From an uncultured Planctomycetia bacterium (GTDB lineage Bacteria > Omnitrophota > Gorgyraeia > 2-02-FULL-51-18), in NCBI GenBank assembly GCA_964374005.1, contig CAYJXB010000001.1, positions 1 through 58,378 of the forward strand: 58,378 nucleotides of DNA, written 5' to 3'. Made by a program: the position numbers and the translations under genes. Below the pieces are notes generated by a model. It saw nothing but the letters and a program-made list of their open reading frames with translations, was not told the DNA's origin and searched no databases. The stretch's first letter is position 1. Every line of letters begins with the position of its first letter. Below, piece by piece: positions 7,250 to 54,030 of the stretch.

Positions 7250-8302
7250 TTAATAGGGGACAGCGCCCTTTTTTTTCGAAAAAGGGCGCTGTCCCCTTTT
7301 TAAAATCAAGGCCGCTTCTTCCGAACGGCTTCGGTCGCAGATCAAAGTTCCCTGGCTTGTTTGGACCACCACGAGCTCCTGCGCTCCAAGAACCACTAAG
7401 GGTCTCTGATGGTAATTGACAAGAAGCGAGCGTTTTGTTTCTCGGTGGAAGGTTTGACCTTCAACAAAATTTTGGTTTCTGTCTTTGGAGGCCCTCTCCA
7501 AGAACATGCCCCAGCTCCCCATGTCGCACCAATCCATGCTCGTTTTCATCACAACGATATTATCCGCTTTCTCCAAGAGCGCGTAATCAATGGAGAGGTT
7601 GGGGAGATTTTTATAGCTATGGGCCGACCTACGGACCTCAAACCGGCGATAGACCCTCGACGCGAATTTTTGCATCGTGTCCAGAAAAACGCCGATTCTC
7701 CAAGTAAAAATTCCGGCATTCCACAAAAAATTACCCTGCCGAAGATAACGAGCCGCCAGACCAAAACCTGGTTTTTCCTTGAAACGCTTGACTTGATAGC
7801 CAAGCCCGGCGCTTTTGATTTTCCGGCCGCACTCAATGTATCCCAAGCCCATCGCCGGGAAAGTCGGCCGGATGCCGATCACGACGAGCGATCGGCTTTT
7901 TTGAGCAACCTCAATCGCGGCGCGCATCGTCTTTTTGAAAAGAACCTCATTTTTAATCAGATGATCCGCTGGAAAAAATGAAACGACTTCTTCCTTGCCG
8001 CACGCGTCGCTTAAGGCAAGACAGGAAAAGAGGATCGCGGAGGCGGTGTTGTTGCGGAAAGGTTCGACCAGGATATTGGAGGGCGCAAGGCGCGGAAGCT
8101 CCGCTTTGATAAGAGGGACATGCTCCTTGGTTGTGATCACATGGATTTTTTTTTGATCATAAACTTTCAAGAGCCGCCGGTAAGTTTTTTGCAAAAGAGA
8201 CGCCTTGCCGTCAAACTGGATACGGTATTTTGGAAATTGGCCGTGCGTGAGCGGCCAGAATCTCTCGCCTTGGCCGCCGGCCATGATGATTGCCTGTGCC
8301 AT
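7250..8302 (-). CDS. mannose-1-phosphate guanylyltransferase (nucleotidyltransferase family)
   Basis: IIMAGGQGERFWPLT sugar-nucleotidyltransferase N-terminus. 350 aa. Confidence 0.75.
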   Translation of the reverse strand: MAQAIIMAGGQGERFWPLTHGQFPKYRIQFDGKASLLQKTYRRLLKVYDQKKIHVITTKEHVPLIKAELPRLAPSNILVEPFRNNTASAILFSCLALSDACGKEEVVSFFPADHLIKNEVLFKKTMRAAIEVAQKSRSLVVIGIRPTFPAMGLGYIECGRKIKSAGLGYQVKRFKEKPGFGLAARYLRQGNFLWNAGIFTWRIGVFLDTMQKFASRVYRRFEVRRSAHSYKNLPNLSIDYALLEKADNIVVMKTSMDWCDMGSWGMFLERASKDRNQNFVEGQTFHRETKRSLLVNYHQRPLVVLGAQELVVVQTSQGTLICDRSRSEEAALILKRGQRPFSKKKGAVPY

Positions 8303-8303
8303 C

Positions 8304-9110
8304 TTATACCTTTACCTTTTTTCCTAACGCCTTTGCGAACGGGCGGATAAACTCTTTGGAAAATTTCGTCGCGCTGATCCCTGGGTGAGCCATGAGGGCG
8401 CGAACAACCACGCTTCCGATGATCACTCCGTCGGCCATTTGAGAAAGGGTCTTTGCCTGCGCCGGAGTGGAAACGCCGAAGCCCACGCAGACCGGAAGTC
8501 TCGTCTGACGGCGAATGGCCTTAAGATTACGGCGAACGTCCGACGCGAGGGTTTTCCTCGCCCCGGTGACGCCGGTCAACGAGACATAATAAACAAACCC
8601 ACGCGTGGCGCGGGTCACCTTCTTTTGTCTGGCGCGATCGCTTGTCGGGGCCAAAAGATAGATTAAATTGATTTTGTGGCATTCGAGGACAGGACTGATT
8701 TCCAGCCCCTCTTCCGGAGGCAGATCAGAAACGATCACGCCGTCCACTCCGGCGCGCGCTGCGTCTTTCGCAAAACGCTGAATCCCATAATGAAAAATCG
8801 GATTGAAATAGCTCATCAAAAGAATGGGGGCCTGGCTCTTTTTCCTTACGCGCGCCACTAATTTTATGATTTTCGCAAGGGTCGTTCCGTTTTTGAGCGC
8901 TCGTTGGGAAGATGCCTGAATGACGGGCCCGTCGGCAATCGGGTCGGAGAACGGGACACCCAATTCAACCAGATCCACGCCGTTTTTCTCAAAGGCAAGG
9001 ATCAGCGCCTCAGTTTTTTTAAGGCCGGGGTCACCCGCCGTAATAAAAACGACGAGTGCTTTTTTCTTTTCTCTTTTCAGAAACTCAAATTTTTTTTGAA
9101 TCCGGTTCAC
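8304..9110 (-). CDS. trpA: tryptophan synthase alpha chain
   Basis: FITAGDP, ELGVPFSDPIADGP. I place the start at GTG 9110..9108 (VNRIQKKFEFLK...), 7 nt after AGGAGG. The ORF-track extension to 9140 (MVGWKKGGGG) lies inside repeat F1-a. Confidence 0.93.
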   Translation of the reverse strand: MNRIQKKFEFLKREKKKALVVFITAGDPGLKKTEALILAFEKNGVDLVELGVPFSDPIADGPVIQASSQRALKNGTTLAKIIKLVARVRKKSQAPILLMSYFNPIFHYGIQRFAKDAARAGVDGVIVSDLPPEEGLEISPVLECHKINLIYLLAPTSDRARQKKVTRATRGFVYYVSLTGVTGARKTLASDVRRNLKAIRRQTRLPVCVGFGVSTPAQAKTLSQMADGVIIGSVVVRALMAHPGISATKFSKEFIRPFAKALGKKVKV

Positions 9111-9258
9111 CCCACCACCTCCTTTTTTCCACCCCACCACTTATTTTTTACGATTGCGAAGCAATCGGTTCGCTTCGCGAACAAAATAAGTGGTGGGGTA
9201 GAAAGATTCGCTACAAGCGAATCTAAAGATTCTTCGAATCTAAAAGGAGGTGGTGGGG
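9110..9258. repeat. F1-a: MITE-like palindromic element between trpB stop and trpA start (composite, contains a 67-bp core at 9132..9198)
   Basis: Arms CCCCACCACCTCCTTTT (9110-9126) and AAAAGGAGGTGGTGGGG (9242-9258), 17/17 complementary. TCA at 9107-9109 and 9259-9261. Internal hairpins CGATTGC/GCAATCG, GTTCGC/GCGAAC, AGATTCGC/GCGAATCT, AGATTC/GAATCT. Confidence 0.9.
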
Positions 9259-9261
9259 TCA

Positions 9262-10443
9262 TCATAAATTCAGCGCTTTAGACGCCTGATCCATGTCCTT
9301 GTCTCCGCGTCCGGATAGGCAGAGAACCAACGTGTCATTTTTCTTAAATTGATTTTTATGTTTCGCGAGATACCCGATCGCATGGGAAGGCTCGAGAGCC
9401 GGAATGATGCCTTCGAGCGTGCTCAGCATCCTGAAACCCTTCAACGCTTCTTGATCCGTGACCGAGACATAGCGGACGCGTTTGGTGGATTTCAAATAGG
9501 CGTGCTCAGGGCCCACGCCCGGGTAATCTAACCCCGCCGAAATAGAATGTGCCAACAGAATCTGCCCGTCGGCGTCCTGCAACGCCTCGCTCTTGGATCC
9601 GTGAAGCACCGCGATTTGTCCCGAACTTAGGCTTGCCGCGTGTTTTCCGGTTTTGATCCCGAGCCCAGCCGCTTCGACGCCGATCATTTTTACGCGGGTG
9701 CCTAGATACGGATGAAAAAGCCCGAGGCTATTGGAACCCCCGCCGACGCAGGCCAAAAGATAATCGGGATCCTTTCGCCGAAGTTTTTTAAATTGGGATC
9801 GGGTCTCTTTTCCGATCACCGACTGAAAATCCCTCACCATCATCGGAAAAGGATGCGGCCCGATCACGGAGCCGATAATGTAGTGCGTGTCGCGCACGTG
9901 GGTCACCCAGTCGCGCAGCGCTTCATTGACCGCGTCTTTTAAAGTTTGAGAGCCCGTTTTGACCGGGATCACGCGCGCGCCTAAAAGTTTCATGCGAAAT
10001 ACATTGACCGCTTGCCGCTGAATATCCTCCTGCCCCATGTAAATATCACACGGAATCCCAAACAGGGCGCAAACGGTGGCCGTTGCCACGCCGTGTTGCC
10101 CGGCGCCGGTCTCGGCGATCACTCTCTTTTTTTTCATCCGCAGCGTCAGCAATACCTGGCCAAGCGTATTATTGATTTTATGAGCGCCCGTATGCAACAG
10201 GTCTTCTCTTTTTAAAAAAATTGTCTTGACGCCAATCGCTTTTGCCAATCGTTTGGCATCGGTGAGAGGCGTGGGTCTTCCCGCAAATTCTTTTAGATAA
10301 TAATTTAGTTCGTTCTTAAATCGACGGTCATTTCTGGCCTTCCGGTAGACGCCTTCAAGCTCTTCGAGAGCTGTCATCAACGTCTCGGGAACATAGCGGC
10401 CTCCGTAAGGGCCAAAATGGCCCCGGGTGTCAGGTTTTGGCAT
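9262..10443 (-). CDS. trpB: tryptophan synthase beta chain
   Basis: [19 protein letters not shown]-lysine region [17 protein letters not shown]. Confidence 0.97.
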
Positions 10444-12186: not shown

Positions 12187-12755
12187 GGCCGGGTCAAGCT
12201 TAAGAAATTACGCAGGATCTCCTTGCCGCATTGCGTGAGAATGGATTCGGGGTGAAATTGCACGCCATAGATCGGCAACGTTTTATGCTGCAACCCCATA
12301 ATCTCCTTTTCTTTTGTCTCGGCCGTGATCGTCAAATCCTTCGGCAATGTTTTTCGCTCCACGAGGAGCGAATGATAACGCGTGGCGACAAAAGGGTTGT
12401 CGATGTTTTTGAACACCCCTTTGCCGTTGTGATAAATTTTAGAAGTTTTTCCGTGCATGAGCCGTTTGGCGCCCACGACCCTTCCTCCGAACACCTCGCC
12501 GATGCACTGATGCCCCAGGCAAACGCCCAAAATGGGTATCTTAGAGCCCAGTTGCTTGATCACCTCTTTCGAAACGCCCGCATCTTTCGGGCTTCCGGGA
12601 CCGGGCGAGATCACGATACGACTGGGTTTCGCTTTTTTTATTTCGCTGATGGTGATCGCGTCATTTCTCACCACTTTTAATTCTTGGCCCATTTCGCCCA
12701 AGTACTGCACGAGATTGTAGGTAAAAGAGTCGTAGTTATCAATCATCAGGATCAC
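12183..12755 (-). CDS. trpG: anthranilate synthase component II (glutamine amidotransferase)
   Basis: [30 protein letters not shown] start 12755..12753 at the edge of F1-b. Confidence 0.95.
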
Positions 12756-12903
12756 CCCACCACCTCCTTTTGAGACGACAACCCCACCACTTGTTTAGCC
12801 GCATAAGCGGCCGATTGCTCCGCAATCGTTGCAAATAAGTGGTGGGGCAAAGTCGTCTCGGCGCTACGCGCCTGAATTGAAAATTCTAAAGGAGGTGGTG
12901 GGG
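12755..12903. repeat. F1-b: palindromic element between trpE stop and trpG start (contains a core-like module at 12782..12847)
   Basis: Arms CCCCACCACCTCCTTT (from 12755) and AAAGGAGGTGGTGGGG (12888-12903). TCA at 12752-12754 and 12904-12906 (the latter is the trpE stop). Confidence 0.9.
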
Positions 12904-14406
12904 TCATGATGCGACACCATTCTCGGCAAACTCAATCGCCTTTATCAGGGCCTTTGCTTTATTCACGGTCTCCTGATATTCCTTTTCGGGTTTGGAGTCC
13001 GCCACGATCCCGGCGCCTGCCTGGACGTAAGCTGTCCCGTCTTTGATCAAGAGCGTGCGAATCGCGATGCAGGAATCAAGATTCTTGGAATAGCTGAAAT
13101 AGCCCACAATGCCGGAATAAAACGAACGCTTCTGGTTCTCCAATTCGTCAATGATCTCCATCGCGCGCACTTTCGGCGCGCCTGAGATCGTGCCTGCCGG
13201 AAACGTCGCACGCAAAACGTCAAAAATGGTCTTGCCTTTTCTTAAGCGGCCTTCCACGTTGCTCACCAGGTGCATGACATGGGAATACTTCTCGACCGTC
13301 ATGAATTCGGACACCCGCACACTTTTATAATCGCAGACGCGGCCCAAGTCATTTCGCCCCAGGTCCACCAGCATCAAGTGCTCGGCGCGTTCCTTCGGAT
13401 CGTTCAGCAGTTCTTTTTCCAGCCGCGAATCCTCGCGGGCGTCCTTCCCCCGGCGGCGGGTGCCGGCAATGGGCCTTAAAGTCGTCTTTTCATTCTCGCA
13501 GCGTACGTGCACTTCCGGCGAGGCCCCGACAAGATAAAAGCCATCGCAATTCAGATAAAACATGTAAGGCGAGGGATTGATGGACCGCAGGGCGCGGTAC
13601 ACATCCAGCGGCTGGGACTGGACTTTCGTGCGAAACGCCTGCGAAAGAACGACCTGAATGATCTCGCCCTGCTTGATATAATTTTTTGCCTTTTGCACCG
13701 CCTTCTCAAATCCTGCCTTCTTGAAATTAGAGTCGATTTGGTGCGCCAACGGTTTGGCTTGGGCGGTGGAGAACCGGCTCTCTACCGGCATCGATCTCAA
13801 ACGCCGGATCTCCTGATCGATCTTTTGGACCGCGTGTTCATAAGCCTCTCCCGGATTTTTGAAATCATCCAACACGACATTGGAGACGACTTTGATCTTT
13901 TTGTCGAGATGATCAAAAATAAAAAGCGTGTCCGTGAAGATGAAAAGCGAATCCGGGATAGCTGCGGCCTCTTTATTTTTATCGGGGATTTTTTCGATGA
14001 ATCGCACCGTATCGTAACCCAGATAACCCACGGCACCGCCGGAAAAAGACGGAAGGCCTTTCACGGGCGCCTGTTTAAAGGGACTTAAAATCCGTTCCAG
14101 TTCGTATAAAGGGTCTTTCTTCGTGATAAAAATGTTTTCTTTTTTTCCGGGACGCGTCAGTGTGATTTGAAGTCCCTTACTTTTAAAAATAAGTGAGGGG
14201 GCCCCGCCGATAACGGAAAATCGAGCGATCTTCTCCCCTCCCTCGACCGACTCCAAAAGGTAGCTGTAAGGGTTGTCGCCCATCTTGATAAAGCAAGAAA
14301 CCGGTGTCTCAAGATCCGCGAGGATCTCGCGATAGACCGGGATCAGATTGGATCGCTTGGCCAATTTCAAAAACTCTTTTTTAGTCGGGCAACAATCATC
14401 CATCAA
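12904..14406 (-). CDS. trpE: anthranilate synthase component I
   Basis: 500 aa. LLESVEGGE, GAGIVADS, chorismate-binding C-terminal half. Confidence 0.96.
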   Translation of the reverse strand: MMDDCCPTKKEFLKLAKRSNLIPVYREILADLETPVSCFIKMGDNPYSYLLESVEGGEKIARFSVIGGAPSLIFKSKGLQITLTRPGKKENIFITKKDPLYELERILSPFKQAPVKGLPSFSGGAVGYLGYDTVRFIEKIPDKNKEAAAIPDSLFIFTDTLFIFDHLDKKIKVVSNVVLDDFKNPGEAYEHAVQKIDQEIRRLRSMPVESRFSTAQAKPLAHQIDSNFKKAGFEKAVQKAKNYIKQGEIIQVVLSQAFRTKVQSQPLDVYRALRSINPSPYMFYLNCDGFYLVGASPEVHVRCENEKTTLRPIAGTRRRGKDAREDSRLEKELLNDPKERAEHLMLVDLGRNDLGRVCDYKSVRVSEFMTVEKYSHVMHLVSNVEGRLRKGKTIFDVLRATFPAGTISGAPKVRAMEIIDELENQKRSFYSGIVGYFSYSKNLDSCIAIRTLLIKDGTAYVQAGAGIVADSKPEKEYQETVNKAKALIKAIEFAENGVAS

Positions 14407-15553: not shown

Positions 15554-16266
15554 GTCCTCACCGCCTCCCGAAGCGTAAATTTATTTTCATAAAGCGCCGT
15601 GCCGATGATCACACCCTTAATATTTTCTTGTTTAAGGTCCATGATCCTGGTTAGATCGCCAAGAGAGCGGACGCCGCCGGAGGCGATCACATCCTTAGGG
15701 AACGCTTGGCTGAGATCCCGGATTTCTTTAAGATTGGGACCCTCCAAGGCGCCGTCTTTTGAAATATCCGTATAAATAATCGTTTGGCCGCCCAATGCCT
15801 GGACTGTTTTTGCCAAATCGGTGGCTTTCGTGTGCGTCAGCGTTGTCCAGCCATCCGTCGCGATGAACCCGTCAAGCGCGTCGATGCCTACGATCATCTT
15901 TTCACCCAATTCGGACAACGCCTCTTTGAGAAACCCTTGATCCAGGCACGCCTTCGTGCCTAAAGTCACCCACGCCGCTCCCATCTCGAGAATAGACGCG
16001 GCCGTCTCAATGCTTCGGATGCCGCCGCCGACTTCGAGCGGTGTGCGGACGGATTTCAATATTTTTTCGACCGAGCTGAGGTTCCTCGGCGTCCCGTGAA
16101 GCGCCCCGTCCAAATCCACGACATGGATCCTGGAAGCGCCCTCTTCCTCAAAGCGCTTGGCGATCTTTTCGGGACCGTCAAAGTAGACTTTCTCTTCTTT
16201 AAATTTTCCTTGGACCAGGCGGACTACCTTTCCGTCTTTCAAATCAATCGCGGGGATCGGGATCAC
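15535..16266 (-). CDS. hisA: ProFAR isomerase (HisA)
   Basis: [32 protein letters not shown] start 16266..16264 at the edge of F1-c. Confidence 0.94.
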
Positions 16267-16432
16267 CCCACCACCTCTTTTTTGGCTTCAGCCAAAGACG
16301 CGCATAGCGCGTCGAGGCGACGCTTTAAATCCGTCGTCCAACCTAAATAAAACTTTTTGTCTTCTAGACTGCGCATGAGATACACGTAAGCGCTATTTAC
16401 CGTGAGCGTCGCCTCAGAAAGAGGTGGTGGGG
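16266..16432. repeat. F1-c: palindromic element between hisH stop and hisA start
   Basis: Arms CCCCACCACCTCTTT (from 16266) and AAAGAGGTGGTGGGG (to 16432). TCA at 16263-16265 and 16433-16435. Internal 11-bp inverted repeat GAGGCGACGCT / AGCGTCGCCTC. Confidence 0.88.
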
Positions 16433-17053
16433 TCACCCCACCACCTCTTTTCGGTAATCAATAAAGTTTTTTATCACGCGAAGCCCCAACGTCTGGCTTT
16501 TTTCAGGATGAAACTGGGTGGCAAAAATATTTCCTTTCCAGACCGCGGAACAAAACGAAATCCCGTAGCTCGTGGTCGCCGCGACCCAGGACCGGTCCTC
16601 GGGATCCCCATAAAAAGAATGGACAAAATAAAAATGATCCCCATTTTTAACGCCTTTAAGAACGGGGCAATTTTTTTTAGCGAGTTTCAAAGTATTCCAG
16701 CCCATGTGGGGTATTTTGAATCGCCCTTGAAAGCGGCGCACGCGTCCATGGACGATATCGAAACCCTTGACTCTTTTTCCCTCTTCGCTTTCGCTGAAAA
16801 GCAGCTGAAGCCCCAGGCAAAGCCCCAGATACGGCGTGCCGCTGGTTATTTTTTCTTTAAGTGCTTCCACGAGGTTGAGGCGTTTGAGCTCTCTCATCGC
16901 ATGGGTAAAGGCCCCTACGCCCGGCAGGATGATTTTTTCCGCCTTTTTCACCTCGCTTTTCGCGGACGTGATCTTGACGCGCTCGCCGTGATGTTCAAAG
17001 GCTTTTTGCACGCTGCGCAAATTCCCCATACCGTAGTCTACGATGACAATCAC
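16433..17053 (-). CDS. hisH: imidazole glycerol phosphate synthase glutaminase subunit
   Basis: IVIVDYGMGNLRS, GLCLGLQ, QFHPEKS. The last codons (KEVVG-stop) are made of an F1-type arm. Confidence 0.94.
   Translation of the reverse strand: MIVIVDYGMGNLRSVQKAFEHHGERVKITSAKSEVKKAEKIILPGVGAFTHAMRELKRLNLVEALKEKITSGTPYLGLCLGLQLLFSESEEGKRVKGFDIVHGRVRRFQGRFKIPHMGWNTLKLAKKNCPVLKGVKNGDHFYFVHSFYGDPEDRSWVAATTSYGISFCSAVWKGNIFATQFHPEKSQTLGLRVIKNFIDYRKEVVG
16436..16451. repeat. Solo F1-type arm forming the last codons of hisH
   Basis: CCCCACCACCTCTTTT directly abuts the hisH stop, so 16421-16447 is the palindrome GAGGTGGTGGGG-TCA-CCCCACCACCTC. Confidence 0.8.
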
Positions 17054-17067
17054 CCATCACCCCCGTC

Positions 17068-17092
17068 GTCCGCCATCAAAACGCCGGCGGAC
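17068..17092 (-). other. Simple hairpin in the hisB-hisH spacer
   Basis: GTCCGCC (17068-17074) and GGCGGAC (17086-17092), 7-bp stem with an 11-nt loop. Followed in the transcript by GGGGGTGATGG-GTG, an F1-arm-like SD. Confidence 0.6.
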
Positions 17093-17107
17093 TACTCGCA
17101 TTGACGC

Positions 17108-17737
17108 TCATAACTTTCCTTTTGTAGAGGGGATTGATGTTACCCGAGCGTCAACGCTCGTAGCCCAATCCAGCGCCTTCGCGAGCGACTTAAAAGTCGC
17201 TTCAATGATGTGGTGGGGCTGTTCGCCCGATATAAAGTCCACATGCAGCGTCATTCCCAGGTGGTTGGCGAACGACTCAAGAAAATGTTTCGCGTCGGCC
17301 AGCGTGTAATCCCGATCATTTTTTTTAGCACGCATCGCGGGATGCTCGATCCATTTCGTTTTGGGATGTGTGTGCATGTGAAAAGACCCGCGGCCACCCA
17401 GGTCAATCGTCACGCGTGTACCGGACAGCGCTTCATCAAGCGGCGCCCGAATATCGGCAAAACGCCGGATGCCCCTTTTGTCTCCCAATGCCTTTTTAAA
17501 GGCCTCACCTAAAGCGATCCCGACATCTTCATTCGTGTGATGCGTGTCGATGTCCAAGTCTCCCTTGGCTTTCAGCCGAATATTGAACAGGCCGTGTTTG
17601 GCCAAGGTTTCAAGCATGTGGTCCAAAAACCGGATACCCGTCTTGACATTGGATTTGCCTTGTCCGTCAATGGCCACTTCCGCGAGGATCTGCGTTTCTT
17701 TCGTTTTTCGTTGGATCACGGCTGAACGTTTTCTCAT
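17108..17737 (-). CDS. hisB: imidazoleglycerol-phosphate dehydratase
   Basis: FLDHMLE, DTHHTNEDVGIALG, HHIIEATFK. Confidence 0.93.
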   Translation of the reverse strand: MRKRSAVIQRKTKETQILAEVAIDGQGKSNVKTGIRFLDHMLETLAKHGLFNIRLKAKGDLDIDTHHTNEDVGIALGEAFKKALGDKRGIRRFADIRAPLDEALSGTRVTIDLGGRGSFHMHTHPKTKWIEHPAMRAKKNDRDYTLADAKHFLESFANHLGMTLHVDFISGEQPHHIIEATFKSLAKALDWATSVDARVTSIPSTKGKL

Positions 17738-25062: not shown

Positions 25063-25167
25063 CCCGTTAGACTCCTTACCAACAATGCGTTACTATTACT
25101 TATGCGATTCGCGGTTCGCTTGAAAACTGTTGCGCCACCGATATTGAAATTTAGGAGTCTAACGGGA
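25062..25167. repeat. F2b-1: 106-bp palindromic element between pgsA stop and pgpA start
   Basis: TCCCGTTAGACTCCTTACCAAC ... TTGAAATTTAGGAGTCTAACGGGA. CTCA at 25058-25061 and 25168-25171. Confidence 0.88.
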
Positions 25168-25168
25168 C

Positions 25169-25729
25169 TCATTCAAGCGTCTCTAGATTTTTTATCACGT
25201 AGCGAATGCCGCTCCAAAGAGTGATCGCCACAATAAAAAATAGGCTGAAATAAATAAGCCGGGTGGCGCTCGGAGTCCATTCGGGCCGCCAGACACTGGT
25301 TTCCTTCACGGCGAGAAACAGCAATACCCCCACGATCGCGGCAAACTGTAATACCGTTTTTTGCTTACCGCTTCCGCGCGCGGACTGCGAGTCCCCCAAA
25401 GAAGGCGGGATAAGCCGCCAGCTCGTGATCAGAAAATCTCTCGTGATGATCAACACCACCATCCAGGCGGGCATGATGCCCATTTGCACAAATGCCAGGA
25501 ACGCGGAGAGCGTCAGAATTTTGTCCGCAATCGGATCCATGAGTTGCCCGAAGCGGCTGACCTGGCCCCTTTCGCGGGCGAACTTGCCGTCCCAGTAATC
25601 CGTAAAAACGGCCAGGATGAACGTCGCAAGCGCCAGCGCCTTAGACAGCGCCCCCTGAACGGAAAGAAGGAGTATGAAAACGACGGTGAGAAGAATGCGA
25701 TAAAACGTTAAACGATTGGGAAGCGTCAC
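25169..25729 (-). CDS. pgsA: CDP-diacylglycerol--glycerol-3-phosphate 3-phosphatidyltransferase
   Basis: DYWDGKFARERGQVSRFGQLMDPIADK motif. GTG start 25729..25727 at the edge of F1-d. Confidence 0.9.
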   Translation of the reverse strand: MTLPNRLTFYRILLTVVFILLLSVQGALSKALALATFILAVFTDYWDGKFARERGQVSRFGQLMDPIADKILTLSAFLAFVQMGIMPAWMVVLIITRDFLITSWRLIPPSLGDSQSARGSGKQKTVLQFAAIVGVLLFLAVKETSVWRPEWTPSATRLIYFSLFFIVAITLWSGIRYVIKNLETLE

Positions 25730-25847
25730 CCCACCACTCCTTTCGTCCCACCACTTGTTTTTTGCGATCCGAAGGATCGGCCGCCGATGGCGGCAAAACA
25801 GGTGGTGGGACCAATCGCCTTGCGATTGTAAGAAAGAAGTGGTGGGG
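25729..25847. repeat. F1-d: palindromic element between rimO stop and pgsA start (inner module 25747..25809)
   Basis: Arms CCCCACCACTCCTTTC and GAAAGAAGTGGTGGGG (one G-U position in the transcript). TCA at 25726-25728 and 25848-25850. Confidence 0.88.
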
Positions 25848-27185
25848 TCACTCCACGGTCCCGATCAGGTCGTACTCCAGCGCATCCTTGATTTTGACCC
25901 TCGTAAAATCCCCCGGCTTCAAATCGGACCGGCTATGAATAATCACCTGCCCGTCCACTTCCGGCGCGTCGCCTTCGGTACGCCCGTAAAACAATCCTTC
26001 TTCCTCAGCGTTTTTTTCATCCACCAAGACGCGCAACTCTTTCCCTACCAGAGCGCTATTGAGGCTCCGAGAAATTTCCTGCTGCTGTGCCATCACGGCG
26101 TTGAAGCGCTCTTCTTTGATTCTCTTTGGGATTTGATCCGGCCACCCGTAAGCGCGGGCGCCCTCTTCCTCTGAAAACATAAATGCGCCGAGCCGTTCAA
26201 ATCTCACCTCTTGCAAAAAACCCAGTAACTCTTGAAATTCCTCGTCGGTCTCCCCTGGAAACCCCACGATGACGGTTGTGCGGATGTGGACGCCCTTTAT
26301 TTTCTTTCGAAGCGCATGAATCCCCCACTCCATTTTGGCGCGCGTCACGCCGCGATTCATCCGTTTTAACATCTCCTCATGGCTGTGCTCGATCGGGAAA
26401 TCCACATACCGGCACACACTGGGGTTCTCGGCGATCGCGTCGATCAGTTCCTCGCTGACATGGCCGGGATGCGCATACAAAAATCGGACCCAAGGCACCA
26501 GATCAAGTTTCACGATTTTCCTTAAAAGCTCGGGTAGCTTGAACGTTTTATCCTGATCATAGCCATAGGCCGCCGTATCCTGTCCTATCAGATTGACCTC
26601 TGAAAGCTTTCTTGCGCCGGCAATGATTTTAATCTCGTTTAAAACAGATTCGATCGAGCGGGAACGATGAGGGCCTTTCATTTTTGGAATCACGCAATAA
26701 GAACACGCGTTGATGCACCCTTCGGATATTTTCACATAAGCGAAATGATCCGGCGTCAGGGAAACCCGCGGCGCGTTTTCATCGAGAAGAGTGCGGGGCT
26801 TGGGCTTCACCTCATAGATCTTTTCCTTTCTTTCGAGCGGTTTTAAAAGCCGCGCCAGATCCCCGTAATTATTAGTGCCGATAATCCCGTCCACCTCAAT
26901 TAACTCTTTCTCTAACTCCTGGCCAAAGCGCTGGGCCAAGCATCCGAGCACGACCACCGCAGACAGCTTCCCCTTCTTCTTCAATTCGCACAGCTTTAAA
27001 ATTGTCTCGATGGATTCCAATTTGGCCGATTCGATGAAACCGCAGGTATTCACGACTGCGACGTCCGCGAGCTCAATATCCGGAACAATCTCATGGCCGT
27101 GTTTTTCAAGACTGCCGAGGGCCACCTCGGAATCCACGAGAGTCCTTGAACAACCTAGGCTGATGAGTCCGATTTTCATAGGCAA
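25848..27185 (-). CDS. rimO: ribosomal protein S12 methylthiotransferase RimO
   Basis: UPF0004 N-domain (SLGCSRTLVDSE), radical-SAM CINACSYC, C-terminal TRAM domain. Confidence 0.9.
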   Translation of the reverse strand: MPMKIGLISLGCSRTLVDSEVALGSLEKHGHEIVPDIELADVAVVNTCGFIESAKLESIETILKLCELKKKGKLSAVVVLGCLAQRFGQELEKELIEVDGIIGTNNYGDLARLLKPLERKEKIYEVKPKPRTLLDENAPRVSLTPDHFAYVKISEGCINACSYCVIPKMKGPHRSRSIESVLNEIKIIAGARKLSEVNLIGQDTAAYGYDQDKTFKLPELLRKIVKLDLVPWVRFLYAHPGHVSEELIDAIAENPSVCRYVDFPIEHSHEEMLKRMNRGVTRAKMEWGIHALRKKIKGVHIRTTVIVGFPGETDEEFQELLGFLQEVRFERLGAFMFSEEEGARAYGWPDQIPKRIKEERFNAVMAQQQEISRSLNSALVGKELRVLVDEKNAEEEGLFYGRTEGDAPEVDGQVIIHSRSDLKPGDFTRVKIKDALEYDLIGTVE

Positions 27186-30109: not shown

Positions 30110-30214
30110 CCCGTTAGACTCCTTACCAACATTGAGTTACCCTTATCGACACGATTCGTTGCGAGCCCAGAAACTTTTGCGTTGCCAATCTTGAAATTTA
30201 GGAGTCTAACGGGG
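30109..30214. repeat. F2b-2: 106-bp palindromic element between dut stop and ftsK start
   Basis: CCCCGTTAGACTCCTTACCAAC ... TTGAAATTTAGGAGTCTAACGGGG. TTCA at 30105-30108 and 30215-30218. Its ends match F2b-1 while the centre has diverged. Confidence 0.88.
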
Positions 30215-30215
30215 T

Positions 30216-35053: not shown

Positions 35054-35071
35054 AAATACCTCCGTTATCTT

Positions 35072-35187
35072 AACTCAAAACTTAAAAGGTAAAACGCAAA
35101 ACTTTTGGGTCACTCCGTGACCTGTAATCAACCCAGGTCGCGAAGCGACACAATAGTTTTACGTTTTTAGTTTTAAGTTTTACGTTT
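35072..35187. repeat. F3-A: long hairpin element between xerD and rbfA
   Basis: A/T-rich arms built of AAAACG/GTTTTA-type units (AACTCAAAACTTAAAAGGTAAAACGCAAAAC ... AGTTTTACGTTTTTAGTTTTAAGTTTTACGTT) around hairpins GGTCAC-TCC-GTGACC and GTCGC-GAA-GCGAC. Confidence 0.8.
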
Positions 35188-35191
35188 CTTT

Positions 35192-42470: not shown

Positions 42471-43322
42471 TTACACCGTGATTAAGAAATTATCGATGAG
42501 CCTGACGTTTCCAAAGAAAACCGCGAGCGCTATCAGGATTTTCTGGCGGTTTTTCAATTCTACCACAGGTTCGAGCGTCTGGGCATCGACAATTTCAACA
42601 TAGTCGATTTTGAGATGCCGCGCGTTTTTTAGCACCTCTTTGACTCTCTTTTTGATCTTAGACGCATCGGCCACGCCGCTCTTGACTAAATCCGAGCCTC
42701 GTTGCAGCGCCCGGTACAAAAAAGGCGCCTCTTGCCGCTCGGGGGCCGACAACAAGACATTGCGTGAACTCATCGCGAGCCCATTGGGCTCTCGGACGAT
42801 GGGCGCCATTCTCACGCGGACCGGAAAATCCAGGTCCTTCACCATTTGCTCAATGAGTCGAAACTGCTGATAGTCCTTCTGGCCCAGATAAATCGTATCG
42901 GGCATGACAATATTTAAAAGTTTCAAAACGACAGTCGCCACGCCGACGAAATGGGACGGGCGTGAAACGCCGCACAACCCTTGAGCGAAGTTTTTGACCG
43001 AGACCGACGTTTGAAAATCTTCCGGATAAAACTCCCTCACACGCGGTGTAAAAAGAAAATTAATCTTTTCCTTTCGTAAAAGTTCGGTGTCTTTTCCCAG
43101 ATCTCTTGGGTATCGCCAAAAATCATCAAGGGGACCGAATTGCAATGGGTTCACAAAGATGCTGACCACGGTCGCCTTGTTCTCCTTCTTTGCCTGACGG
43201 ACAAGCGAGAGATGGCCTTCGTGAAGATACCCCATCGTCGGCACAAAACCAATCGCGCGGCGGCGTTTCCTTAAAGCCTGAAGCGCGTTTCTAAGCTCCT
43301 GAGAATGGCGTATAACTCTCAC
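42471..43322 (-). CDS. panC: pantoate--beta-alanine ligase
   Basis: [19 protein letters not shown] start 43322..43320 at the edge of F1-e. Confidence 0.94.
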
Positions 43323-43431
43323 CCCACCACCTTCTTTGTTTCACCGCGACGCCCAATGACACCAAGAGCGGTGAAAGGATTCGCCGCAGGCGAATCCAAG
43401 GATTCTTCGAATCTAAAAGAAGGTGGTGGGG
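43322..43431. repeat. F1-e: palindromic element between folK and panC
   Basis: Arms CCCCACCACCTTCTTT and AAAGAAGGTGGTGGGG (16/16). TCA at 43319-43321 and 43432-43434. Shares GATTCTTCGAATCTAAAAG with F1-a. Confidence 0.9.
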
Positions 43432-43898
43432 TCATGGCAAAGTTCTTCGTAAAGCTGCTTGATGGTTTTCTTAAGCTTTGGATGGACAAGGTCCGGCGCG
43501 ATCTCGAAGAGAGGTTGCAACACAAACTTCCTCTGTGCCAGCCGGGGATGCGGGATGCTTAAGGTTTTTCCCTCAAGGATCACCACATCCCCGTAAAATA
43601 AAATATCCAAATCCATGCTCCGCGGCGTGTTAGGCGGCGATTTTAAACGGCCAAGCCGGCGCTCGATCATCTTGAGTTGCGAAAGTAGTTCCAGCGGAAG
43701 AATGTCCGTGTCGATCTTGATCGCGCCGTTTAGGAATTTCCCTTGAAGCCCCCCCTCTACTTCCGGATCAGTTTCAATGAGGGCGGAGACGGCCTGAACC
43801 TGGATTTCCTTATTTTCTTTTAAAAGTGCCAAGGCTTTGTCGATGTTGGCTTGCCGGTCGCCAAGGTTGGATCCGATGCCTAGATAGACCAACGGCAT
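43413..43898 (-). CDS. folK: 2-amino-4-hydroxy-6-hydroxymethyldihydropteridine diphosphokinase
   Basis: VYLGIGSNLGDR, PRSMDLDIL, IPHPRL. The last 6 codons (DPTTFF) are read from the F1-e arm. Confidence 0.9.
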   Translation of the reverse strand: MPLVYLGIGSNLGDRQANIDKALALLKENKEIQVQAVSALIETDPEVEGGLQGKFLNGAIKIDTDILPLELLSQLKMIERRLGRLKSPPNTPRSMDLDILFYGDVVILEGKTLSIPHPRLAQRKFVLQPLFEIAPDLVHPKLKKTIKQLYEELCHDPTTFF

Positions 43899-45805: not shown

Positions 45806-45862
45806 ACCATTATCTCCTGTTGTCACCACCCACCGTCAAAGCATGATTTCTAACGGGGTGAA
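45781..45862. repeat. F2a-2: palindromic element between dapA stop and the ancestral dapB start, now partly coding
   Basis: CCCCGTTAGAAATC (45781-45794) and GATTTCTAACGGGGTGAA (45845-45862). Flanks are TTA (45778-45780, degenerate) and TCA (45863-45865). Confidence 0.8.
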
Positions 45863-46747
45863 TCATGACCTTCCCTTGACTTTCAAGCCGTAAGTTTTCA
45901 TGGCCTGCGTCAAGATTTTTTGGTTTCGGGGCTGCATCGGCGAAAGCGGCAGACGAAGCTCCTCGCGGCAAAGCCCCATCAAACCCATGGCCTTCTTAAT
46001 CGGGATCGGATTTGTTTCAATAAATAGGGCGCGGCACAAAGGAAACATTTTATAATGAAGCTCCCGGGCTCTCTGGAAGCTCCCGGCAAAATAAGCGTCC
46101 ACCATTTCCGAAACCGCCTGTGGCACGATGTTGGCGATCACCGAAATGACCCCTTTGGCGCCCAAGGCCATTAAAGGTAAGGTCAGGGAATCATCGCCGC
46201 TTAAGACCGTGATATCGCATAAGGATAAAATGTGAGAGGTCTGGTCCATGCTGCCGGTCGCTTCTTTGATCCCCACGATATTTTTTATTTTTGACAATCG
46301 CGCGACCGTCTCAGGAATCAGCGTCACGCCCGTGCGACCGGGGACATTGTAAAGAATGATGGGAATATTCACTTTTCGGGCAACTTTTTCATAATGCCGG
46401 TAGAGCCCTTCCTGCGTCGGACGGTTGTAATACGGCGTGACCATCAACGCGCCGTCGGCGCCTGCTTTTTTCGCGAACTTCGTCAGCGAAATAGCCTCTT
46501 CCGTACTATTGGAACCCGTGCCCGCTATCACCGGGACTTCGTGGCTGGCCGCCTCGACCACCACCTTCATCACGCGTTCGTGTTCTTTGTGCGACAACGT
46601 GGGGCTCTCGCCTGTCGTGCCGGCCGGCACGATGCCGTCGGTGCCCGATCGAATATGAAACCGCACAAGCTTCGCCAAGGCCTTTTCATCCACTTTTCCG
46701 TTCCTAAACGGCGTCACAATGGCCACGATCGAACCATGAAATTTCAC
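45863..46747 (-). CDS. dapA: 4-hydroxy-tetrahydrodipicolinate synthase
   Basis: IVAIVTPF, GTTGES, IVGIKEATGS (Schiff-base Lys). GTG start at the edge of F1-f. Confidence 0.95.
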   Translation of the reverse strand: MKFHGSIVAIVTPFRNGKVDEKALAKLVRFHIRSGTDGIVPAGTTGESPTLSHKEHERVMKVVVEAASHEVPVIAGTGSNSTEEAISLTKFAKKAGADGALMVTPYYNRPTQEGLYRHYEKVARKVNIPIILYNVPGRTGVTLIPETVARLSKIKNIVGIKEATGSMDQTSHILSLCDITVLSGDDSLTLPLMALGAKGVISVIANIVPQAVSEMVDAYFAGSFQRARELHYKMFPLCRALFIETNPIPIKKAMGLMGLCREELRLPLSPMQPRNQKILTQAMKTYGLKVKGRS

Positions 46748-46862
46748 CCCACCACCTCCTTTTTTCCACTGCCCACTTTATCCTCCCACCACGCAAAGGC
46801 AGTGGAAGAATCCGCCAAAAGCGGATTCGTCAATCTAATAGATTGTAAAGGAGGTGGTGGGG
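46747..46862. repeat. F1-f: palindromic element between dapF stop and dapA start
   Basis: Arms CCCCACCACCTCCTTT and AAAGGAGGTGGTGGGG. TCA at 46744-46746 and 46863-46865 (the latter is the dapF stop). Confidence 0.9.
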
Positions 46863-47675
46863 TCATAACTTCACTCTCCCCTCAAACGTCGTTTGAACAG
46901 GACCTTCCAGACAGACGTCAGAAAACTTCCCACCCTTTCTTGAGAAATAAACCTTCAAGATCTCCCCACCTTTTGTGCGGACGAGCACAGGAGATTTCAA
47001 ACCCTTTAAAGCGGCCGCCACGAGCGCCGCAGCGGTAGATCCCGTGCCGCATGAAAGCGTCTCTCCCTCGACGCCGCGCTCATAAGTCCGTACCTCTATG
47101 GTATTCTGTGATCCCAGACAAACAAAATCAGCGTTGGTCCCTCTGGGGGCAAAATAAGGATGGCGCCGGATCTCGCGCCCAAACCGATCCACATCCACAC
47201 CCCTCAAAGAATCCACGAATTTCACGGCGTGCGGCACGCCGGTATCGATGAAATTCAATATTTCATTCCTCCCGTTGACCTGGAGGCTGAAATTCAACTT
47301 GAGGCTTTTGGGCTTCGCCAATTTGGCCGTGACGATATTTTTGCGGACCTCCGCCCCGATGATCCCCGCGAGCGTTTCGATGGACAACCGACCCTTTTTC
47401 ATCTTATGATCCGCCAAGAATTTTGCGGCACAGCGGACTCCATTGCCGCACATCTGGGCCTGGCTTCCGTCAGGGTTAAAAATCCGCATCTTGACGTCGG
47501 CCTTTTTTGATTTGTCTAAAAGGATCAGGCCGTCCGCTCCGATCGAATATTTGCGCTCCGACAATTTTTTGGCTATTTTTGCCGCGTCGTTCCCGATGAC
47601 TCCCGAACGATTATCCACGACGATAAAATCATTGCCCGCCGCCGCCATTTTCGTAAACGGACAGCCAGCCATCAA
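46863..47675 (-). CDS. dapF: diaminopimelate epimerase
   Basis: FTKMAAAGNDFIVVDN, MCGNG, SCGTGS. Confidence 0.94.
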   Translation of the reverse strand: MMAGCPFTKMAAAGNDFIVVDNRSGVIGNDAAKIAKKLSERKYSIGADGLILLDKSKKADVKMRIFNPDGSQAQMCGNGVRCAAKFLADHKMKKGRLSIETLAGIIGAEVRKNIVTAKLAKPKSLKLNFSLQVNGRNEILNFIDTGVPHAVKFVDSLRGVDVDRFGREIRRHPYFAPRGTNADFVCLGSQNTIEVRTYERGVEGETLSCGTGSTAAALVAAALKGLKSPVLVRTKGGEILKVYFSRKGGKFSDVCLEGPVQTTFEGRVKL

Positions 47676-48946: not shown

Positions 48947-48949
48947 GAT

Positions 48950-48993
48950 TAGCGTATAGCGTATAGCGTATAGAGAAAAAACGCTATCCGCTA
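48950..48993. repeat. Tandem heptamer (TAGCGTA, 3 full copies plus a partial fourth) plus inverted partner ACGCTATCCGCTA between argH and lysA
   Basis: TAGCGTATAGCGTATAGCGTATAG at 48950-48973. Inverted 13-mer at 48981-48993 (12/13 complementary). Confidence 0.85.
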
Positions 48994-49006
48994 GAATCTC
49001 CTATTG

Positions 49007-51569: not shown

Positions 51570-52622
51570 TTATCTTTTTTTTCTTTTGGTGGTCAAAAGC
51601 AGATACATGAGCGCCTTCTGCGTATGCAAACGGTTCTCCGCCTGGTCAAAGATCGCCGAGCGGGAATGTTCAATCACTTCTTCGGTGATTTCCTCGCCAC
51701 GATGCGCCGGCAGGCAGTGCAAGATCATCGAATCTTTCGGCGCCTTGCCGATGATCGCGCCATTGACCTGAAAGGGCTGGAAATCACGCAGCCGTTGCTC
51801 CCGCTGCTTTTCCTGCCCCATGCTGACCCATACGTCGGTATAAATCACATGGGCATTTTTAATGGCCGTGAAAGGATTGTTCGATAGCGTTATCTTAGAA
51901 GCGCTCCCTTTCGCGATGAGCTTGATGTCTTTCAGGATCTCCTCGCCCGGTTCATAACCACGCGGCGTGGCAATGGCCAGATTCGCGCCCGCCTTGGCCG
52001 CCCCGTACAAGAGCGAGTTCAACACGTTGTTTCCGTCCCCGATATAAGCGATATTGATTTTATCAAGCGATTTGAATTTCTCCCGGATCGTAAAAAGATC
52101 CGCCAGCGTCTGGCAAGGATGAAACGAATCGCTCAAACCGTTGATCACCGGGACCGTCGCGTGTTTGGCGAACTCTTCCACATCCGAGTGCGTGTAAGTC
52201 CTCGTGACGACAATGTCGCAGTACCGTGACAAAACACGCGCGACGTCTTTAATGGATTCCCGCTCTCCGAGCGGCATCTCCTGAGGGTCCATATAAACCG
52301 CGCTTCCGCCAAGCTCGTTGATCCCCACCTGAAATGACACGCGCGTGCGGATCGAGGGCTTTTGGAAAAGAAGCGCCAGGGATCGCCCCTTTAGCTTGCT
52401 GAAAAACCCTTGCGGGTTCTTCTTCATCTTTTCTGCCATTTTAAAGAGGGCCTCGAAATCGCACCACTCCATCTCCTTGATGCTCAGCAAATCTTTGAAC
52501 TGAAACGGTGCGCCCGAAGGCCTTTTCAACTTCGTTCTTTTCTTTGATGCGGCTCGGCGACGTGCGGCGCGTTTTTTTCTTGTGCCCTTGGATCTTCTTT
52601 TACTCTTTTTGGATCTTTTCAT
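51570..52622 (-). CDS. argF: ornithine carbamoyltransferase with polybasic N-terminal extension
   Basis: SIRTRVSF, HPCQTLAD, HCLPAHRGEE. The first ~38 residues are a K/R-rich tail not typical of OTCases. Confidence 0.9.
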   Translation of the reverse strand: MKRSKKSKRRSKGTRKKRAARRRAASKKRTKLKRPSGAPFQFKDLLSIKEMEWCDFEALFKMAEKMKKNPQGFFSKLKGRSLALLFQKPSIRTRVSFQVGINELGGSAVYMDPQEMPLGERESIKDVARVLSRYCDIVVTRTYTHSDVEEFAKHATVPVINGLSDSFHPCQTLADLFTIREKFKSLDKINIAYIGDGNNVLNSLLYGAAKAGANLAIATPRGYEPGEEILKDIKLIAKGSASKITLSNNPFTAIKNAHVIYTDVWVSMGQEKQREQRLRDFQPFQVNGAIIGKAPKDSMILHCLPAHRGEEITEEVIEHSRSAIFDQAENRLHTQKALMYLLLTTKRKKR

Positions 52623-52647
52623 GCGGCCTTACTCCCTTCGTTGGTCA

Positions 52648-52716
52648 CCCCACCACCTGTTTTCTACGATTGCTACAAGCAATCGGTCTGCTTCGCGGAC
52701 AAAACAGGTGGTGGGG
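52648..52716. repeat. F1-g: 69-bp core-only F1 element inserted in the 3' end of argD
   Basis: CCCCACCACCTGTTTT ... AAAACAGGTGGTGGGG (16/16) enclosing hairpins CGATTGC-TACA-GCAATCG and GTCTGC/GCGGAC. TCA at 52645-52647 and 52717-52719. Collinear with 9132..9198. Confidence 0.9.
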
Positions 52717-53908: not shown

Positions 53909-53918
53909 ATAAAACCTC

Positions 53919-54030
53919 TAACTTAAAACGTAGAACGAAAAATGTAAAACTGTGGTGTCGCTTTCGCGACCTTGATTACAAGTCACGTCGTGACTCTAAA
54001 GTTTTTCGTTTTGCGTTTTTCGTTTTACGT
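53919..54030. repeat. F3-B: second copy of F3, inverted relative to F3-A, between argB and argD
   Basis: The reverse complement aligns with F3-A: ...CGCAAAAC..TTT.G.GTCAC...GTGAC.TGTAATCAA..GGTCGCGAA(A)GCGACAC..AGTTTTAC...TTTTAAGTT. Confidence 0.8.

Follow-up and report, generated by a model that had tools for sequence, protein, structure and literature searches.

Short inverted-repeat insertions that rebuild stop and start signals at operon junctions of an Omnitrophota genome

What are the short palindromic sequences that lie between genes of otherwise compact bacterial operons, and how do those operons accommodate them? The question is raised by a stretch of 58,378 nt (GCA_964374005.1, contig CAYJXB010000001.1, positions 1–58,378, forward strand), hereafter the window, which is very gene-dense and in which nearly every gene is encoded on the minus strand, as part of long operons for his-trp, dap, arg and housekeeping functions. 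The nearest homologues of its TrpE and RimO proteins are named Omnitrophica or Omnitrophota. Seven complete copies of a sequence that we call F1 are found in these operons, and on the coding (minus) strand all of them read TGA-CCCCACCACC...GGTGGTGGGG-TGA, with TGA on both flanks. Comparison with relatives shows, at the level of sequence, that the F1 copies are insertions that duplicate 3 bp and rebuild the stop codon, the Shine-Dalgarno (SD) sequence and the start codon of the junctions they enter. We consider it likely that F1 is a non-autonomous family of the MITE type (miniature inverted-repeat transposable elements), which would maintain translational coupling across the rebuilt junctions and would be mobilised in trans by a DDE-type transposase.

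F1 copies in the window and their empty sites

A 14-mer from F1, AGGAGGTGGTGGGG, has 15 matches in the window at up to two mismatches, compared with 0.24 expected by chance. One match, at 17205–17218, was rejected as a chance occurrence, as it consists of hisB codons for the conserved HH..E motif. NCBIfam profiles confirm the names of the genes at the F1 junctions. At the junction of trpE and trpG, positions 12752–12906 read TCA-[12755–12903]-TCA on the plus strand, and TGA-CCCCACCACCTCCTTT...AAAGGAGGTGGTGGGG-TGA on the minus strand. The parts of this copy, and the other copies in the window, are as follows (related loci are given L numbers).

12755–12903, minus strand: F1 copy at trpE|trpG, 149 nt, with 16-bp terminal inverted repeats CCCCACCACCTCCTTT / AAAGGAGGTGGTGGGG; junction empty in L002, L006 and L007
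12755, minus strand: terminal G of the trpE|trpG copy, base 1 of the trpG GTG start
12904–12906, minus strand: upstream copy of the TGA duplication, the trpE stop codon
12752–12754, minus strand: downstream copy of the TGA duplication; T and G finish the trpG GTG and A opens codon 2
12782–12847, minus strand: nested minimal F1 unit, 66 nt, CCCCACCACTTATTT...AAACAAGTGGTGGGG, with flanks TTG..TTG, in an internal hairpin loop of the host element
9110–9258, minus strand: F1 copy at trpB|trpA, 149 nt, inside which 9132–9198 is a nested minimal unit; TGA at 9259–9261 and 9107–9109
16266–16432, minus strand: F1 copy at hisH|hisA, 167 nt; TGA at 16433–16435 (hisH stop) and 16263–16265 (part of the hisA GTG)
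16436–16450, minus strand: solo right-repeat remnant AAAGAGGTGGTGGGG, 15 nt, fused in frame to the hisH 3' end and encoding ..KEVVG*
25729–25847, minus strand: F1 copy at rimO|pgsA, 119 nt, with degenerate repeats and a nested minimal unit; TGA at 25848–25850 (rimO stop) and 25726–25728
43322–43431, minus strand: F1 copy at the panC start within the folK 3' end, 110 nt; TGA at 43432–43434 and 43319–43321
46747–46862, minus strand: F1 copy at dapF|dapA, 116 nt; TGA at 46863–46865 (dapF stop) and 46744–46746
52648–52716, minus strand: minimal F1 in the argD coding region, 69 nt, 24 nt before the original stop; TGA at 52717–52719 and 52645–52647, out of frame
52619–52647, minus strand: displaced argD 3' end, 29 nt, now non-coding, ..T N E G S K A A TGA; the old stop still forms an ATGA overlap with the start of argF (ATG, 52620–52622)

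The two TGA triplets have different roles. The upstream one is the stop codon of trpE, hisH, rimO and dapF; in trpB it directly follows the gene's own stop (9262–9264). On the downstream side, the last G of the element and the TG of the duplication together form the GTG start of trpG, trpA, hisA, pgsA, panC and dapA, which places six of the seven copies on a start codon. When proteins are started at this element-end GTG, their profile matches begin at residue 1–5 and at profile position 1–2, with the TrpG match beginning at residue 1. Three upstream proteins have altered ends. FolK of the window now ends ..CHDPTTFF*, its final residues being encoded by the F1 left repeat, and ArgD ends in an F1-encoded tail, TPPPVLSAKQTDCL*. 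The HisH profile match stops at residue 199 of 206, before the tail encoded by the solo remnant, and the HisH of L002 ends ..IDAR*.

An initial annotation of the window had removed each F1 copy together with one TGA in silico and read the junctions that remained. Our excisions reproduced each of its strings for all seven copies. The trpE|trpG junction becomes GCATCATGATCC, an ATGA overlap, and those of dapF|dapA, trpB|trpA, hisH|hisA and rimO|pgsA become TTATGAAATTTC, TTATGATGAACC, GGGTGATCC and GAGTGACGC, respectively. The excised argD frame reads ...RRLTNEGSKAA*, with its stop overlapping the argF ATG as ATGA, and the excised folK frame extends ~30 nt into panC.

These reconstructions could be compared with natural junctions in relatives of conserved gene order, which was the check that the initial annotation had proposed. 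The relatives were L002–L005 (TrpE 90% identical), L006 (79%) and L007 (77%) for the his-trp region; L106, L107 and L108 (DapA 76, 75 and 72% identical) for the dapA region; and L186 and L187 (RimO 86% identical) and L188 (76%) for the rimO region. All seven window junctions were found without F1 in relatives that keep the gene order, in agreement with the claim that the elements are insertions with target duplication, and a single copy of the triplet is present at the seven natural empty sites. The predicted ATGA or GTGA occurs at five of the seven junctions, and at the other two the relatives have the predicted uninterrupted FolK and ArgD C-termini.

The agreement extends to the details of individual junctions. 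That of trpE|trpG is an ATGA overlap in L002, L006 and L007, and the L002 sequence, GCGTCATGATCTTGATGATCG, may be set against GCATCATGATCCTGATGATTG from the excised window. The dapF|dapA junction is TTATGAAATTTCA in L106, as predicted, and is empty also in L107 and L108. At trpB|trpA, L002 and L006 both have ATGA and L007 an overlap of 8 nt; at hisH|hisA, L002 has ATGA, L006 GTGA and L007 a 16-nt gap. No element is present at rimO|pgsA in L186 and L187, where TAG is followed by one base and GTGAAC, or in L188, and GTGA occurs at the pgsA start. ArgD of L108 ends ..STKEGSKAA*, compared with the predicted ..LTNEGSKAA*, and has an ATGA overlap onto argF. FolK of L107 and L108 enters panC by ~30 nt and has a tail, ..NESYPKLTSA*, that agrees with the one predicted by excision; the long folK overlap, which the initial annotation had treated as an anomaly, is thus the natural state in these relatives and the ancestral one.

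Overall, the sequence comparisons support that earlier interpretation, with some adjustments. Its hisH|hisA string was recovered, but the GGG preceding the stop is not ancestral, as it derives from the right-repeat remnant at 16436–16450; the ancestral junction was probably ATGA, because the 90% relative has ...CCCGATGATCCCG. The trpB|trpA string was likewise recovered, and the pre-insertion sequence is also readable as ATGA then ATG-ATG-AAC. In the relatives, rimO and pgsA are separated by gaps of 1 nt and 7 nt and do not overlap. The proposed change of ATG to GTG upon insertion was borne out for trpG, trpA, dapA and panC, and probably for hisA.

A formal alternative is that the spacers are ancestral and that the relatives lost them by precise deletion, an event that direct TGA repeats could mediate. 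We regard this as very improbable. All sampled relatives, which lie at several distances from the window, are without F1 at the seven sites, and copies are present at non-orthologous junctions elsewhere (hisB|hisH in L007; downstream of aroQ in L010). Furthermore, in argD and folK the element interrupts a reading frame whose displaced tail matches the protein ends of the relatives, which identifies these copies as insertions and not as sequences deleted from the relatives.

Occupancy differs in both directions between lineages, as L007 has a minimal F1 of 66 nt (7445–7510) at hisB|hisH, where L002 has an 8-nt gap and L006 a 4-nt overlap. With this junction included, F1 presence or absence differs between the window and its relatives at eight junctions. 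The window itself has at hisB|hisH a 54-nt spacer (17054–17107) that holds a GC hairpin and ends GGGGGTGATGGGTG. In the Logan assembly of ERR4904390, two contigs (L001 1–25 and L189 1–25), whose TrpG and DapA are identical to those of the window, begin inside the F1 right repeat; because they break in this repeat just upstream of trpG and dapA, F1 is present at those sites. A dispersed repeat would be expected to cause contig breaks of this type. A look-up of the cluster representative of the window RimO returned no record.

The F1 family in other genomes and its target sites

Additional F1 copies were found by pattern scanning of a species-representative genome collection. The matches listed included many chance single ones in unrelated phyla, and only loci with paired repeats or an Omnitrophota-type context were used. 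Among the matches listed and in script searches there were at least ~24 further copies in at least 10 other Omnitrophota-type metagenome-assembled genomes (MAGs), which have been deposited under the labels Omnitrophica/Omnitrophota, 'Planctomycetia' or 'Elusimicrobiota'. F1 copies are 44–169 nt in length; no open reading frame (ORF) spans them and they hold no transposase ORF. The terminal inverted repeat is exactly 16 bp, CCCCACCACCTCTTTT / AAAAGAGGTGGTGGGG, as pairing in 34 units is near-perfect at positions 1–16 and random at 17–18. The interiors are highly variable and made of small GC-rich hairpins, although one subfamily aligns collinearly (window copies at 9110, 43322 and 46747; L038, L042, L065 and L072). 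The copy in L089 is collinear with seven other copies only when it is reverse-complemented, which indicates that both orientations relative to genes occur.

The flanks were counted in 31 copies, tabulated for the window together with at least 10 further MAGs. TGA forms the left flank in 30 of these and the right flank in 29. The left TGA is preceded by A in 20 copies, by G in 7 and by T in 3, and never by C, giving ATGA, GTGA or TTGA, that is, three start codons fused to A. In 26/31 copies the element-end GTG opens an ORF of at least 80 codons, and in 21/31 the left triplet closes an ORF of that length in frame. The initial annotation had named TGA as the duplicated target, and TGA is indeed strongly preferred, but it is not the only triplet. 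TAG..TAG flanks a copy at the fabH stop in L042 (1717–1785), TAA..TAA surrounds a unit nested in L094, and TTG..TTG flanks the nested unit of the trpE|trpG copy, for which an un-nested form was found at L047 106–185 (GACTTTGTCG). Triplets that vary and yet match each other, together with the single triplet at empty sites, indicate a true 3-bp target duplication.

Larger F1 copies hold a nested minimal unit of 66–69 nt. The un-nested L047 sequence indicates that the inner unit inserted in a hairpin loop with duplication of TTG. The trpE|trpG copy of the window and L010 7442–7590 are the same composite at different loci, the latter downstream of aroQ. Their nested units (12782–12847 and L010 7498–7563) occupy the same TTG loop position of the composite in opposite internal orientation, which could reflect either two independent hits on one hot spot or inversion between the repeats.

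These observations bear on whether F1 is moved as single-stranded hairpins by an HUH/Y1 enzyme, of the REP/REPIN-RAYT or the IS200/IS605-type 'PATE' kind. TGA would then be a recognition or cleavage motif, belonging to the target on the left and to the element on the right, and nothing would be duplicated. Such a mechanism would suit the strong hairpins of F1, several of which are REP-like GC-rich stem-loops, as well as the near-constant TGA flanks, the failure to find a DDE partner in the window and related loci, and the inner units inserted in a hairpin loop in opposite orientations at the same TTG site in two genomes. However, TAG..TAG, TTG..TTG and TAA..TAA behave as a copied target would and not as an invariant part of the element, F1 terminates in perfect inverted repeats of 16 bp and not in subterminal hairpins, and the empty sites carry exactly one triplet. 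We therefore think movement by an HUH/Y1 enzyme improbable. An integron attC/cassette array was also considered and was rejected on inspection of the sequence, as F1 is flanked by core biosynthetic genes whose order is conserved and has ends unlike attC core sites.

The window contains 2115 TGA/TCA trinucleotides and 59 same-strand junctions, 12 of which remain unoccupied NTGA overlaps. A minimal F1 at L038 3351–3422 lies, with a TGA duplication, within an ArsS-type radical SAM gene; its 72+3 nt are read in frame as 25 codons, adding TPPPVWPTDVGRSANGGSLQTGGGV, and where it has inserted the ArsS profile match is divided into two stretches. The copies inside argD and this ArsS gene use TGA even though its codon functions are not needed there, which points to an intrinsic preference for TGA. 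Selection must contribute as well, because no duplication other than TGA, placed beside the terminal G, yields a stop together with a GTG. Part of the excess at junctions must accordingly be due to selection on surviving insertions, in addition to the intrinsic TGA preference.

Translation signals and the folded RNA

The right repeat comprises a full SD, AAAGGAGGTG, plus GTGGGG, with the rebuilt GTG 7 nt later. The left repeat is the anti-SD complement of the right one and contains CACCUCCUUU, the 16S rRNA 3'-end sequence in many bacteria; the F1 sequence with putative complementarity to the 16S rRNA 3' end is AAAGGAGGUG. Since the ends are inverted copies of each other, the element has the same stop/SD/GTG arrangement in either orientation. 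Neither an intrinsic terminator (GC hairpin with U-tract) nor a promoter was found on F1, and an Rfam search to E 1 gave no family match at F1 (nothing at E < 0.1), only a tRNA reaching gathering score in the window. In L053 (4076), L028 (1555) and L064 (3568), solo half-elements with one terminal repeat lie directly before genes and give an SD and a GTG. From their sequences they look like remnants kept as ribosome-binding sites.

When an F1 element inserts in the TGA of an overlapping RTGA, the upstream TGA stays as the stop of the upstream gene, and downstream the terminal G and the TG of the duplication create a new GTG in the original frame, with the right repeat (AAAGGAGGTGGTGGGG) placing the SD 7 nt before it. 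Both flanking proteins survive, with ATG to GTG as the sole change, which would explain the accumulation of F1 copies at the operon junctions of a very gene-dense genome. F1 thereby illustrates a way for mobile DNA to spread where hardly any intergenic sequence exists, as it targets the TGA that overlapping genes share and supplies the ribosome-binding site and part of the start codon itself. We hypothesize that, once transcribed, the left repeat pairs with the right repeat and hides the SD, and that the stop and start meet at the foot of a highly stable hairpin. A ribosome terminating at the left arm, or reading into it, would open the stem, coupling downstream translation to that of the upstream gene. 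Through such unfolding, or through re-initiation from the stop to the start placed beside it, the element would stand in for the 4-nt overlap that was lost.

RNA folding predictions are consistent with this scheme. The trpE|trpG copy has a minimum free energy (MFE) of -103.6 kcal/mol (z = -11). In free RNA, the SD of all six junction copies has a probability of 0.00 of being unpaired, which rises to 0.3–0.67 when the 12–15 nt after the stop are kept single-stranded, as they would be under a terminating ribosome. In the folK and argD copies, the upstream ribosome reads through the entire left arm. Based on these models, F1 in RNA probably keeps the translation of the downstream gene coupled to that of the upstream gene.

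The fold also raises the possibility that F1 copies are host-useful intercistronic RNA hairpins that tune coupling, stoichiometry or mRNA stability, transposition being only the means of their spread. This overlaps with the MITE interpretation. RNAalifold analysis of seven copies found four helices, kept across genomes by compensatory double changes in 16/38 pairs, and the terminal repeats covary at positions 10, 12, 13 and 16. Additional points in favor of a host function are that the SD is fully sequestered in free RNA, that solo right-repeat halves have been kept as SD and GTG, and that comparable sites in the window are occupied by at least three other families of elements. However, close relatives thrive without F1 at all seven junctions, the copies damage genes (ArgD and FolK have lost their original tails, and ArsS has gained 25 codons), and the pairing of the ends could instead serve transposition. 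A primary role as host RNA devices appears unlikely to us on this evidence.

Returning to F1 as a non-autonomous MITE moved in trans, the 3-bp duplication points to a DDE transposase, and by its sequence F1 has every structural trait of a bacterial MITE except an identified parent insertion sequence (IS). Possible leads to a parent exist in the IS1031 group of the IS5 family, which is characterized by an exclusive 3-bp duplication and the target TNA, with TGA documented for ISLrh (PMC12016507). The TGA-type duplication of F1 resembles that of this group, as a lead only, and is dominated by TGA, with TAG and TTG occurring as well.

Several observations weigh against this interpretation. No autonomous element or transposase with F1 repeats was found in the window and ~30 related loci (~400 kb), where a search for inverted repeats of at least 13 nt placed 600–3500 nt apart gave only chance pairs and pairs of separate F1 copies; an IS1031-like transposase was not seen in these sequences either. 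The IS1031 repeats start GA(A/G)CC (GAACCTG... in ISLrh), whereas those of F1 start CCCCACCACC (CCCC). Within-species polymorphism for F1 presence was not seen, and exact-protein look-ups with the window TrpG and DapA matched only the two short ERR4904390 contigs. In nested copies, where codon selection does not operate, the flanks are TTG, TAA or unmatched and not TGA, so that part of the TGA excess at junctions is attributable to survivorship. The compensatory changes in internal stems and terminal repeats point, at the sequence level, to selection on the folded form, which is unexpected for a selfish MITE decaying neutrally. Lastly, a library screen summarised in a review of coupling found that structure located just after the upstream stop lowers coupling efficiency (PMC12548453).

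Known repeat families and sister elements

MIRU elements are short operon intergenic repeats that are thought to be mobile and insert at start codons with coupling kept, -4 spacing and little harm (PMC12548453). They are direct, often tandem repeats with an internal small ORF, whereas each F1 is one palindromic unit that is bounded by terminal inverted repeats of 16 bp, duplicates 3 bp, brings an SD and the G of the GTG start, and forms no tandem array at its sites. Repeats in Neisseria (REP2) and Borrelia also carry a site for ribosome binding along with an ATG (PMC3184786). In contrast to F1, REP2 and the Borrelia inverted repeat carry a promoter too, have no terminal inverted repeats or target duplication, and are located upstream of genes and not in stop/start overlaps.

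ERIC/IRU and Correia elements are bacterial MITEs found inside operons. Chunjie of Geobacter is another MITE within operons, as cited in a review (PMC10969869). F1 resembles these elements in being non-autonomous, in having terminal inverted repeats and duplications, and in forming RNA hairpins within polycistronic transcripts. It differs in that their duplications are TA or longer and that none has been described with an SD in its terminal repeat or with a stop and start rebuilt from the duplication. The same review, a 2024 survey of prokaryotic MITEs, makes no mention of start codon, stop codon or ribosome, and describes the Rickettsia palindromic elements as palindromic, mobile, and fitted to a gene-dense genome in which the host genes stay functional (PMC10969869). 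The F1 copies that are read through in frame in ArsS and that replace the tail of argD are similar to the Rickettsia elements, but those are typically intragenic and translated, whereas F1 is mainly intercistronic and acts via translation signals. In the literature we found no description of F1, of a MITE with SD/anti-SD terminal repeats that rebuild a stop and start, or of repeat elements in Omnitrophota, and the F1 design therefore seems to be undescribed.

In this lineage, F1 accounts for several ATG-to-GTG start changes, for altered ArgD, FolK and HisH C-termini, and for repeat-induced assembly breaks in Omnitrophota MAGs, whose assemblies its copies may fragment. At F1 sites, mis-called starts and broken contigs are to be expected from gene callers and MAG pipelines. 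The family also provides natural bicistronic constructs by the dozen, in which the same gene pair is present with or without a 50–170-nt hairpin and which could serve in tests of the RNA-unfolding and re-initiation models of translational coupling.

F1 is accompanied in the window by at least three more families of intercistronic elements (F2–F4), and four of their sites are empty in relatives. Their presence at junctions indicates that the lineage has been broadly colonised at operon junctions. F2 (106 nt) is present at 25063–25168 (pgsA|pgpA) and 30110–30215 (dut|ftsK), the two copies being 76% alike. Its terminal repeats, (T/C)CCCGTTAGACTCCT / AGGAGTCTAACGGG(A/G), have a CCCC...GGGG design, the same as that of F1, with the SD AAGGAG in the right repeat. 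The F2 flanks are TGAG..TGAG and TGAA..TGAA (a TGA-N duplication), excision restores ATGA (pgpA MSAW.., ftsK MNEQK..), and both junctions are empty in L188. F3 is present at 857–942 (lepA|lepB) and, as a 33-nt stub, at 45830–45862 (dapA|dapB), with the core CACCCCGTTAGAAAT / ATTTCTAACGGGGTG; it ends GGGGTG, giving a GTG start, and its flanks are inverted (TCA..TGA) and not direct. F4, at 35054–35191 (xerC-like|rbfA) and 53909–54029 (upstream gene|argD), consists of long AAAACG-rich imperfect palindromes of 121–138 nt with MFEs of -59 and -32 kcal/mol, whose stem does not include the SD and ATG; L188 and L108 have only 4 nt between the genes at these junctions.

A more far-reaching proposal, which we put forward tentatively, is that F1 and the sister families F2–F4 are mobile elements specialised for overlapping stop/start junctions. 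The folded RNA would loop out 50–170 nt and set the upstream stop beside the new GTG at the base of the 16-bp SD/anti-SD helix, and terminating ribosomes would re-initiate across the insert or unmask the SD, the compensatory changes then reflecting selection for this device. If true, it would be a natural bacterial counterpart of ribosome shunting, in the form of a transposon with its own translational-coupling device.

Two other features of the window were noted. ArgF (51570–52622) has a Lys/Arg-rich N-terminal extension of 40 residues, MKRSKKSKRRSKGTRKKRAARRRAASKKRTKLKRP.., with the ornithine carbamoyltransferase profile matching from residue 41, and the ArgF homologue in L108 likewise begins with a basic extension. 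The spacer at 48947–49006 has three tandem CTATACG heptamers just upstream of an ATG.

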